This document shows positions 53,748 through 55,630 of a stretch of DNA of 64,000 nucleotides, in pieces. The translations under genes were made by a program, and so were the position numbers. Origin of the DNA: a virus. The notes beneath the pieces are model-generated. The model ran no database searches and was not told the DNA's origin. It was given only the letters and a program-made list of their open reading frames with translations. Within the stretch, counting starts at the first letter, position 1; each line of letters starts with the position of its first letter. The stretch lies in the IMG/VR virus record IMGVR_UViG_3300042534_000747, one strand, 5' to 3'.

Positions 53748-54632
53748 ATGGATAATGAAAATAATGATGAAATATATAATAAATCAACAATTGATAAAAA
53801 GATAGAACATGAAGAAAAAGTAATTGTTGAAATTCATAAACAATTAGAAGTATCTCAAGGACAAATATATTCTCCATTTAATGAGTTTAAAACTGAAAAT
53901 ATAACAGTTGCAATATATGCTAGAGTAAGTCCTACAAAACATTTGAAAGATGAAAATGATTTACATGAATCATTAGCAGAATCTATTAGAATGTGTAAAT
54001 TAAAAGCAGAAAAAGAAAATAATCAAATATATAAAGTATATTCTGACCAATACATAAGTGGTAGTGACCATAGCAAATTACCTGCATTTCAAGAAATGAT
54101 GAAAGATGCAAGAGAAGGTAAGTTTACAAGAATTTATTCAAGACGTTCAAATAGGTTTGGAAGAAATTATTATGGTACTATGGAACATGCAATTGAATTA
54201 TCTAAAATGGGTATAACTCTATTATTCCTTGAACCACCATGTGATACTGCATCTCCATTAGGTCATGTATTTTTATCATTTCAAGCATTAAAAGATGAAT
54301 ATGATAGATTAGAAATTTTAAGGAACACTGCAAGAGGAAGAAAAAAAGCATTAGAAAATGGTGTAAAGTTTGGAAGAAAATCTATTGAAATTAATGTTAG
54401 AAGTGCATGGTTAATTAGAAATGATAATTTAAAAATGCCTAGAAATAAAAGAGAATCGATGGATGATACTGCTAAACAATTCAATCTTTCTAAACCATCT
54501 TTAATCAAAAGATTTAAAGAAAGTGGATATTGGCATATGGAATATAATAGATTAATTATAGAAAGTGAAATACATTTGAAAGAAGAAATGAAAAAAAGAT
54601 ATTTTGAATCAATAAAAAAAACAGGTGATTAA
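53748..54632 (+). CDS. Serine recombinase (resolvase/invertase) with C-terminal HTH
   Basis: VAIYARVS, SG..LPAFQEMM, SNRFGRN, GVKFGRK, DTAKQFNLSKPSL. Confidence 0.9.
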   Translation: MDNENNDEIYNKSTIDKKIEHEEKVIVEIHKQLEVSQGQIYSPFNEFKTENITVAIYARVSPTKHLKDENDLHESLAESIRMCKLKAEKENNQIYKVYSDQYISGSDHSKLPAFQEMMKDAREGKFTRIYSRRSNRFGRNYYGTMEHAIELSKMGITLLFLEPPCDTASPLGHVFLSFQALKDEYDRLEILRNTARGRKKALENGVKFGRKSIEINVRSAWLIRNDNLKMPRNKRESMDDTAKQFNLSKPSLIKRFKESGYWHMEYNRLIIESEIHLKEEMKKRYFESIKKTGD

Positions 54633-55630
54633 ACACCTACTACAAATATCTTTTCATTTCTTTGAACAACAAAGTGCTTATGAGTTATTTTTGGATACCA
54701 GAATGTACCTTTGTAATGTTCAATCTTCTTAAATATATCATGATAATTTACATGGAATATTGTTGTAAAATTCTTTTCATGAACCTGTGTTGTCAAAGAT
54801 GCATATGCCCTTCTTTTCTTTACAAAGTTTGTGACATATCCAAGATGCAGACAAAGTACTCTGTAGAATTCCTGAATGTCAATATCATTGTTGATATATG
54901 TAATCAATTCATTCTCAAAGTATGCATTGTTAGAGATATTCATGCCTTCAAAGAGCATTTCTAGTTCATTATGCTTAATGTGAAGCAATTCCCACTTTGG
55001 TTTAAATTCGTCTGTGAATTTTTCATAAATCCATTTGTTAGATTCTACAGGTAGAATTTTAATAGTTTGCTCCTTGAATGGATGTTCATCATCAATTGTC
55101 ATTTTTTCATTGACTGAATATTCATGTTCAACATTCAAAGAATTTACAATTTCAAGAAGAATTGCAAAATCTTCAATTGCCAATTCCATAGACTGATTAA
55201 TTTCAATCTTCTCTTCGTAATTCTTAAATCCTAGTGAAATAATCCATCCGATAAGCATAGCCTGAAGTTCACCTATTGAATTTTCACCATTATAGATGCC
55301 TGAATTCAAGATGTTAAATCCACCATGTGGAGTAATATCTTTAACCTTCTCTTCATGCCATTCATCTTCTGAATATTTCGTTCCACCAGTACCACATTTG
55401 ATGTATTTCAGTATCAATGAAGATTCAGGAGGGATGAAAAAATCATTCCATCTATTTTCAATAGTATAAAGTTCACCTTCATACTCTTCAAGATTCATTC
55501 CTGCAATCTTTTCATACATAATTTCTTTATTCATAGATATAACTGAAATTCTATCATTTCCAGTAAGTTCATCATAAAGTTTCCATCCCTTTTCAGTCAG
55601 GATTTTTGTTGATACATCAATACCTTTCAT
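54629..55630 (-). CDS. Free-standing intein-like protein (Hint plus LAGLIDADG) with catalytic residues substituted
   Basis: GIDVSTKILTEKGWK (block A), IGWIISLG and LFEGMNISN (degenerate LAGLIDADG), YKGTFWYPK..FVVQRNEKIFVVGV (blocks F/G); GGAG RBS. Confidence 0.8.
   Translation of the reverse strand: MKGIDVSTKILTEKGWKLYDELTGNDRISVISMNKEIMYEKIAGMNLEEYEGELYTIENRWNDFFIPPESSLILKYIKCGTGGTKYSEDEWHEEKVKDITPHGGFNILNSGIYNGENSIGELQAMLIGWIISLGFKNYEEKIEINQSMELAIEDFAILLEIVNSLNVEHEYSVNEKMTIDDEHPFKEQTIKILPVESNKWIYEKFTDEFKPKWELLHIKHNELEMLFEGMNISNNAYFENELITYINNDIDIQEFYRVLCLHLGYVTNFVKKRRAYASLTTQVHEKNFTTIFHVNYHDIFKKIEHYKGTFWYPKITHKHFVVQRNEKIFVVGV

Follow-up and report, generated by a model that had tools for sequence, protein, structure and literature searches.

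A free-standing intein homologue without exteins and without catalytic residues, probably retained by selection in a virus-like element

The 64,000-nucleotide stretch of DNA analyzed here (the window), which belongs to a virus-like element recorded as IMGVR_UViG_3300042534_000747 in IMG/VR, contains on its minus strand at 54629..55630 a gene whose product of 333 amino acids (plus stop), referred to as P0001, corresponds to a whole intein but has neither exteins nor the residues required for catalysis. The gene was delimited from the list of open reading frames (ORFs), its translation, homology, and an AlphaFold2 (AF2) model. Inteins are usually regarded as purely parasitic elements whose survival depends solely on their removal from essential proteins by splicing. 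The combined evidence makes it probable that P0001 is an exapted, extein-less intein that derives from a single escape out of a methylase, has lost catalysis, and is kept by selection as a non-enzymatic binding module. According to the trees described below, an intein lineage residing at the HFA|TFP motif of N6/N4 DNA methyltransferases would have left its host gene once. This escape would have founded a small free-standing family with five distinct full-length members, found in the virus-like element, in Methanolobus psychrophilus, and in metagenomes. The family would then have lost its splicing and nuclease activities while its scaffold of Hint and LAGLIDADG domains was maintained by purifying selection, and P0001 would today act by binding instead of catalysis.

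The relationship of P0001 to inteins was established by an exhaustive phmmer search over 1.84 billion representative proteins, which yielded 392 matches with E ≤ 1e-3, 77 with E ≤ 1e-10, and 9 with E ≤ 1e-30 (best E 3.6e-45). In nearly all of them, the close homologue P0003 being an exception, residues 4-332 of the query matched an internal segment of a larger protein, and the collinearity with full inteins seen in these 392 matches is far above chance. An earlier note on this DNA, prepared from the letters alone, had claimed collinearity with a full LAGLIDADG intein, and the matches to embedded inteins over residues 4-332 fully bear this out. Pfam analysis identified the host proteins as N6/N4 DNA methylases (PF01555), tyrosine recombinases, a primase-polymerase, and anaerobic ribonucleotide reductase, each of them broken by a LAGLIDADG-containing insert. 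The host junctions are canonical (...HFA|C...GN|TFP..., ...LRH|C...GN|S..., and others), and the terminal Asn of the embedded homologues is always followed by Ser, Thr, or Cys. One example is an intact DNA methylase on the IMG/VR contig UViG_3300037067_014596 (L001, 9308..11125), which carries an embedded intein of the P0001 superfamily; judging from its Cys1 and GN|S residues this intein is apparently active, and a second methylase gene adjoins. No match to P0001 was found in Pfam (E ≤ 1), NCBIfam, or the protein sequences of the PDB, and the PHROGs database gave only a weak match to phrog_85 (E 0.001), a thymidylate synthase family whose 866-position profile evidently includes an intein. Scans of viral contigs recovered embedded inteins only (L001, L002) or nothing, and scans of genome contigs recovered no relative of P0001, although M. 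psychrophilus carries one. A scan of metagenome contigs yielded one 2-kb contig (L003) holding the first 94 codons of a P0001 homologue.

For a residue-level comparison, 112 full-length matches were trimmed to the intein boundaries and aligned (102 embedded inteins, 9 free-standing proteins, and 1 truncated methylase); all residue percentages given here refer to columns conserved in the 102 embedded inteins. P0001 is divided on the minus strand into a Hint N-lobe (residues 1-112, 55295..55630; based on column statistics and the strands in the model), a degenerate double-LAGLIDADG domain (residues 113-292, 54755..55294; based on columns, charge, and Foldseek), and a Hint C-lobe (residues 293-333, 54632..54754; based on column statistics) that is followed by the stop codon at 54629-54631. 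The splicing nucleophile Cys1 (C in 96%) is replaced by G3 (55622-55624), the block B Thr (T in 92%) by P67 and the block B His (H in 100%) by S70 (P67-S70 at 55421-55432), the block F Cys (C in 94%) by Y312 (54695-54697), and the terminal Asn (N in 99%) by V333 (54632-54634), after which the protein ends. In the nuclease domain, the acidic residue of the first LAGLIDADG motif (D or E in 99%) is replaced by L133 (55232-55234), and the corresponding residues of the second motif (D in 97%, G in 94%) are replaced by N234 and N235 (54926-54931). The list of substitutions drawn up in the earlier note thus proved right in every item against the 102 embedded homologues, with the small correction that block B reads I-P-P-E-S, with Thr changed to Pro and His to Ser. 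Structural positions, in contrast, are retained, including L11, T12, G15, W16, K17, G134, Q146, L259, G264, Y306, G308, W311, R324, and G332. The superfamily itself has an unusual set of splicing residues, since the 102 embedded inteins combine the Cys1 nucleophile and the 94%-conserved block F Cys (in the motif WCP) with a Gly in place of the usual penultimate His (GN|S/T).

P0001 is not the only free-standing protein of this kind. Its closest full-length relatives are P0002, which is the 332-amino-acid protein Mpsy_0653 (AFV22862.1) of Methanolobus psychrophilus R15, and P0003, a JGI protein present on seven contigs, both with 59% identity to P0001. Two more distant proteins, P0021 and P0029 (the latter together with the P0029-like P0154), share 26-28% identity with P0001 and are likewise free-standing, having a Met exactly at the Cys1 position and ending no more than 1-2 residues from the intein end. 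A further close homologue, P0004 (ENA, 228 amino acids, 57% identity), diverges over its last ~15 residues, after position ~213, as if frameshifted. The N-terminus of P0004 is also encoded on the 2-kb JGI contig L003 (1767..2063), where it follows a ParA/MinD-like gene and ~970 nt of non-coding DNA.

Phylogenetic analysis of the 112 aligned sequences with IQ-TREE (LG+G4) placed P0001, P0002, P0003, P0021, and P0029 in one clade on a long stem, supported by a Shimodaira-Hasegawa-like approximate likelihood ratio test (SH-aLRT) value of 99, and a site-heterogeneous mixture model with posterior mean site frequencies (LG+C20 PMSF) applied to 47 sequences still united the two subclades and recovered the same five members with support values of 100/99. 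In both trees the sister group consisted of seven inteins located at the HFA|TFP site of N6/N4 DNA methylases (support for the sister relation 86 and 86/83, respectively). The clade members also share residues that are rare elsewhere, namely E48, Y202, N231 (0% in the embedded inteins), N248, Y256, Y276, and F300. The catalytic losses of P0001 extend to the whole clade: in all five members, position 1 lacks a nucleophile, the last aligned residue is not Asn, and the block F Cys is missing; moreover, P0001, P0002, P0003, P0021, and P0029 have L/T/I and N/S/K in place of the two LAGLIDADG acidic residues. The block B His is absent in four of the five and kept in P0029. With the catalytic positions lost across the five-member clade, the sequences predict that these proteins would neither splice nor cut DNA by known mechanisms.

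The boundaries of the gene coincide with those of an intein. The stop codon of P0001 follows directly after the residue aligned with the last intein residue, and the start lies 3 residues before the first aligned position. Nor were any remnants of a host gene detected. When 15 intein-bearing host proteins were compared with the whole window by tblastn, only the intein part matched, and neither another intein-like sequence nor a methylase was found; the exteins of the seven sister methylases, searched against positions 53000-57500 with permissive settings, produced only noise (best E 0.09) scattered over both strands, so that no methylase remnants flank the P0001 ORF within this region. A match that continues past the P0001 stop (GV*SPVFFID versus GNTFPAKLIE) was rejected as insignificant, as it comprises ~2 identities in 8 residues and lies antisense to the C-terminus of a neighboring recombinase; beyond the stop, such alignments had nothing in common but one Pro, one Ile, and one acidic residue.

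The AF2 model of P0001, calculated from an alignment of 48 rows, has a mean predicted local distance difference test (pLDDT) value of 95.3 and a predicted template modeling (pTM) score of 0.93, and shows the LAGLIDADG helices at residues 121-133 and 220-233 with their flanking strands, in keeping with the pseudo-dimeric alpha-beta-beta-alpha-beta-beta-alpha fold of LAGLIDADG endonucleases. A Foldseek comparison with the PDB retrieved the TliVMA, PhoVMA, PI-SceI, and PI-PfuI inteins first (E 7e-13 to 1.5e-8), and I-DmoI next for the central domain (E about 2e-6). The best match in BFVD was the DNA methylase of Mycobacterium phage Atcoo (A0A649VA31; TMq 0.87, root-mean-square deviation 3.0), and almost all of the top 50 matches in this database were inteins inside larger proteins. 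The combined Hint and LAGLIDADG fold for which the earlier note had proposed a check by AlphaFold and Foldseek was thus obtained in the prediction, and the modeling supports P0001 as a free-standing intein homologue with this fold.

The 102 embedded inteins have a median isoelectric point (pI) of 9.4 and a median nuclease-domain net charge of +10 (interquartile range +5 to +14), and the seven sister methylase inteins range from 0 to +14 in the same domain. The corresponding net charges are −14 in P0001, −15 in P0002, and −11 in P0003, with pI values of 5.1-5.4 (5.2 in P0001), and the charge summed over the six main strands of the DNA-binding saddle falls from about +5 in embedded inteins to −1 to −3 in P0001-P0003. 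A conserved basic patch remains on just one of these strands in the three proteins (KKRR, 271-274). The ORFs of the element are acidic overall (median pI 5.3, median charge per residue −0.031), and with −0.051 P0001 is ordinary among them; within this acidic proteome the neighboring serine recombinase has a pI of 9.0. Since P0001 has thus lost the basic signature of a DNA binder and reached the norm of its proteome, readings that rely on DNA binding, including that of a decoy protecting a target site, become less probable. Because its charge per residue is ordinary for the element, the idea that P0001 is a DNA mimic was discarded.

By analogy to WhiA, P0001 might nevertheless be a sequence-specific DNA binder, that is, a dead homing endonuclease that has a regulatory role or confers "immunity" by shielding sites from active relatives. 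This explanation is unlikely. It agrees with the LAGLIDADG saddle fold, which is retained with high confidence in the model, with the conserved KKRR patch, and with the presence in the window of a ThyA-like gene that has the vacant insertion site of related inteins. The latter gene (59648..60421, minus strand; Pfam Thymidylat_synt, E 2e-10) matches the two exteins of P0049, in which a thymidylate-synthase-like sequence is interrupted by an intein belonging to the P0001 superfamily, and the junction is located exactly at RSWDAF|GGLPAN; hence the element has an unoccupied insertion site of such inteins at a distance of 4 kb from P0001. However, the nuclease domain and the saddle strands have become acidic in P0001-P0003, the pI of 5.2 differs strongly from that of the adjacent recombinase, a true DNA-binding protein, and Pfam detected no added domain, neither a zinc finger as in HO/WHO nor a helix-turn-helix (HTH) domain as in WhiA. 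The role as a DNA-binding factor that had been suggested for P0001 is therefore poorly compatible with a LAGLIDADG domain of net charge −11 to −15. Under the preferred explanation of an exapted binding module, the shift of the nuclease domain from basic to acidic favors binding of a protein, or unusual contacts of the KKRR strand (271-274) with nucleic acid, over classical homing-site DNA binding, and we infer that canonical duplex DNA is a less likely ligand of P0001 than a protein.

Whether a catalytically dead intein is still maintained can be judged from the divergence of its homologues. The window has a G + C content of 25%, and when the gene was evolved neutrally in simulations to 59% protein identity, it accumulated a mean of 13 stop codons (minimum 5), and none of the 300 runs left the frame open. 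In nature, full-length frames are open in three lineages at 59% identity and in two at 26-28%, and the five clade lineages with open frames are separated by more than 2 substitutions per site in the trees. The ratio of nonsynonymous to synonymous substitution rates (dN/dS), calculated over 94 codons from the DNA of the L003 homologue, is 0.18-0.26 with a dS of 1.1-1.5. Conservation in the clade also shows a strong pattern, in which long stretches (e.g., NRWNDFF, QAMLIGWIIS, and QEFYRVLC) are identical. Open frames at this divergence, the dN/dS values, the simulation, and the patterned conservation together argue for purifying selection after the loss of catalysis and against decay. The same conclusion had been drawn before from the concerted catalytic losses, the intact frame, and the hydrophobic core of P0001; it now extends to intact homologues, a dN/dS of about 0.2 over the 94 codons, and the simulated frames.

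These data also bear on the alternative that P0001 is a selfish relic in slow decay, namely the remains of an intein, or of a free-standing homing endonuclease gene, left without function after the loss of the host gene or after homing to a wrong site, and not yet disrupted. In favor of a relic, all catalytic positions of P0001 are gone, the family is very small, with about seven distinct sequences among 5.8 billion clusters, P0004 seems truncated, and the charge of P0001 has relaxed to the proteome average. Yet a relic would hardly keep its frame open in five lineages this far apart when no neutral run did so even at 59% identity and 25% G + C, and a dN/dS of about 0.2, the long identical blocks, the conserved structural positions, and the close agreement of gene and intein boundaries (to about two residues in either subclade) are also difficult to reconcile with decay. 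We therefore regard the relic explanation as improbable.

Several points weigh against exaptation and have to be set beside the evidence in its favor. The dN/dS estimate derives from 94 codons only, with dS near saturation. P0004 looks truncated or frameshifted, which implies that the gene can be lost. Because the proteome of the element is acidic overall, the charge shift of P0001 may be a relaxation to the background and not an adaptation to a new partner, and a few embedded and presumably active inteins (P0090, P0044, P0005) are acidic as well. Real inteins make up most of the alignment used by AF2, so that the model depends on the homology and demonstrates compatibility with the fold. Finally, AT-rich codons specify several of the N, Y, and F residues that the clade has in common, and some compositional convergence of the two subclades is conceivable, although the mixture-model tree still places them together.

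Escape from a host gene has apparently not been restricted to the P0001 clade. Four other free-standing relatives (P0136, P0146, P0148, and P0025) represent independent escapes on both trees. Their first residue coincides with the Cys1 position or adjoins it, their C-terminus is that of the intein, and neither Cys1 nor the terminal Asn is present; both LAGLIDADG acidic residues, in contrast, are intact, and the pI values are 8.8-10.0. As far as their residues can tell, these proteins are probably still nucleases and thus candidate HO/WHO-like elements in uncultured viruses or microbes. This suggests a series leading from embedded, active inteins through free-standing, splicing-dead, and probably nuclease-competent forms resembling HO/WHO to free-standing proteins that are fully dead. 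The nearest neighbors of P0001 by language-model features in the ESM Atlas were three viral clusters (57, 204, and 130 members) of hypothetical proteins of 328-330 amino acids without Pfam families, which may be further extein-less intein families. Proteins of this type may be commoner than published work indicates. Given that the four independent escapees may be active, and that neighboring genes differ between the homologues of P0001 as expected of a mobile gene, P0001 could also be imagined as a still-active mobile endonuclease that uses non-canonical catalytic residues, like WHO elements. This is very improbable, since none of the five clade members retains either metal-binding acidic residue and the surface that would contact DNA is acidic.

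The gene downstream of P0001, read in the opposite direction, codes for a small serine recombinase (53748..54632, plus strand; Pfam Resolvase, E 1.1e-18; PHROG annotation integrase / DNA invertase), and the stop codons of the two convergent genes overlap by 4 nt. The closest homologues of the recombinase are at most 47% identical, and none occurs on the 3.07-Mb Methanolobus genome or on a 121,747-bp contig, both of which carry P0001 homologues. Upstream of the homologue on L003 lies the ParA/MinD-like gene mentioned above, compared with an HD-domain gene upstream of P0001 in the window. The idea that P0001 is an accessory partner of the recombinase, for example a directionality or targeting factor, takes its appeal from the adjacency of the genes, their overlapping stop codons, and a hairpin common to both, but is highly unlikely because the convergent genes are not co-transcribed and no close recombinase homologue was found on this genome or this contig, so that this proposal of the earlier note is not supported here. 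No convincing repeats flank the gene pair, and a mobile cassette is thus not supported. The recombinase has an N-terminal extension of ~50-70 amino acids that is absent from all 47 homologues (212-248 amino acids, ~72% of the query).

The P0001 gene is equipped with its own putative expression signals. A Shine-Dalgarno-like GGAG (55640..55643, minus strand, identified from the sequence) is located 9 nt before the ATG, and an in-frame TAG lies eight codons 5' of the ATG (55652..55654, minus strand, also read from the sequence). These features, and the stop after block G of the 333-amino-acid ORF, had been described before and were all confirmed. Methanosarcinales are able to read TAG as pyrrolysine. 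A read-through extension of P0001 was nevertheless rejected, as translating the TAG as a sense codon would reach the next stop only 17 codons upstream. A terminator-like hairpin spans the P0001 stop codon and is followed by a run of eight T (54610..54641, minus strand); the terminator scan found 2 sites versus 0.4 expected. A 14-nt motif resembling a transcription factor B recognition element (BRE) and TATA box, AAACCTTTATATAT, which was detected as direct repeat family D12, is a candidate promoter (55752..55765, minus strand), and a second TATA-like motif, TTAATATA, is present at 55664..55671 near the gene. An exact second copy of AAACCTTTATATAT at 56585-56598 lies upstream of the HD-domain gene, which is the next gene, and the cassette genes of the element probably have this repeat in common as a BRE/TATA promoter module. 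The promoter role of the motif and the terminator role of the hairpin are putative, but together with the Shine-Dalgarno-like site they make the P0001 gene look like an autonomous unit.

If P0001 and its relatives are what they appear to be, they provide a quantitative, tree-based archaeal case in which a whole intein has left its host gene, lost both activities, and been kept by selection across deep divergence. Together with the independent, nuclease-intact escapes, the clade suggests that inteins escape from their host genes repeatedly, and that the intein scaffold may be reusable for new functions. To our knowledge, the yeast HO/WHO lineage is the one accepted intein domestication, and in that case the nuclease was kept. 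It is conceivable, although we advance this tentatively, that the five-member clade constitutes a domesticated intein family, the first outside yeast HO/WHO and the first with both activities lost, and that it forms an acidic module binding a protein partner (e.g., a nuclease, a methylase, or an intein-bearing precursor of a rival element or the host) as an inhibitor or decoy in conflicts of archaeal mobile elements with their methanogen hosts. With few members and one carrier in culture (M. psychrophilus R15, Mpsy_0653), the family lends itself to experimental tests. Searches of the literature on extein-less, stand-alone, or free-standing inteins of prokaryotes and phages returned no description outside yeast HO/WHO. 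Inteins of methylases and thymidylate synthases figure in a 2025 survey of 784 actinophage inteins, as do several architectures out of the ordinary, and its accessible part describes no whole extein-less intein (10.1101/2025.01.02.630785).

Among known systems, the methylase inteins at the HFA|TFP site (P0005, P0006, P0008) are closest to P0001 outside its own family, with 30-34% identity over the full length and E values down to 3.6e-45, and they share with it, as does the intein of the Atcoo methylase, the Hint plus double-LAGLIDADG architecture and the length. The methylase inteins are embedded in frame and possess Cys1, the TxxH motif, the block F Cys, the terminal Asn followed by Thr, the acidic residues, and basic nuclease domains, whereas P0001 has no exteins, none of those catalytic residues, and an acidic character. 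Yeast HO and WHO are intein-derived independent genes in which exteins, splicing activity, and the C-terminal splicing motif are all absent (Coughlan et al., 2020, PMC7282813), and P0001 resembles them as an independent gene without exteins and without splicing motif G. HO and WHO are, however, active LAGLIDADG endonucleases of eukaryotes that carry a C-terminal zinc finger and originate from the VMA1 (VDE) intein, unlike the P0001 family, which has lost the nuclease residues, has no CxxC repeats or other extra domain, appears to stem from a methylase intein, and resides in an archaeon and a virus-like element. Catalytically dead LAGLIDADG derivatives are represented by WhiA/DUF199 and the LAGLIDADG maturases (PMC7282813). 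These proteins have no Hint domain and bind nucleic acids, WhiA by means of an added HTH domain; P0001 differs from WhiA by its retained Hint lobes, its acidic domain, and the absence of a C-terminal extension and of any Pfam match (E ≤ 1) to LAGLIDADG_WhiA or HTH domains. Nevertheless, WhiA and the maturases have kept the LAGLIDADG scaffold after the loss of cleavage and reused it for binding, which is the course of evolution proposed here for P0001.

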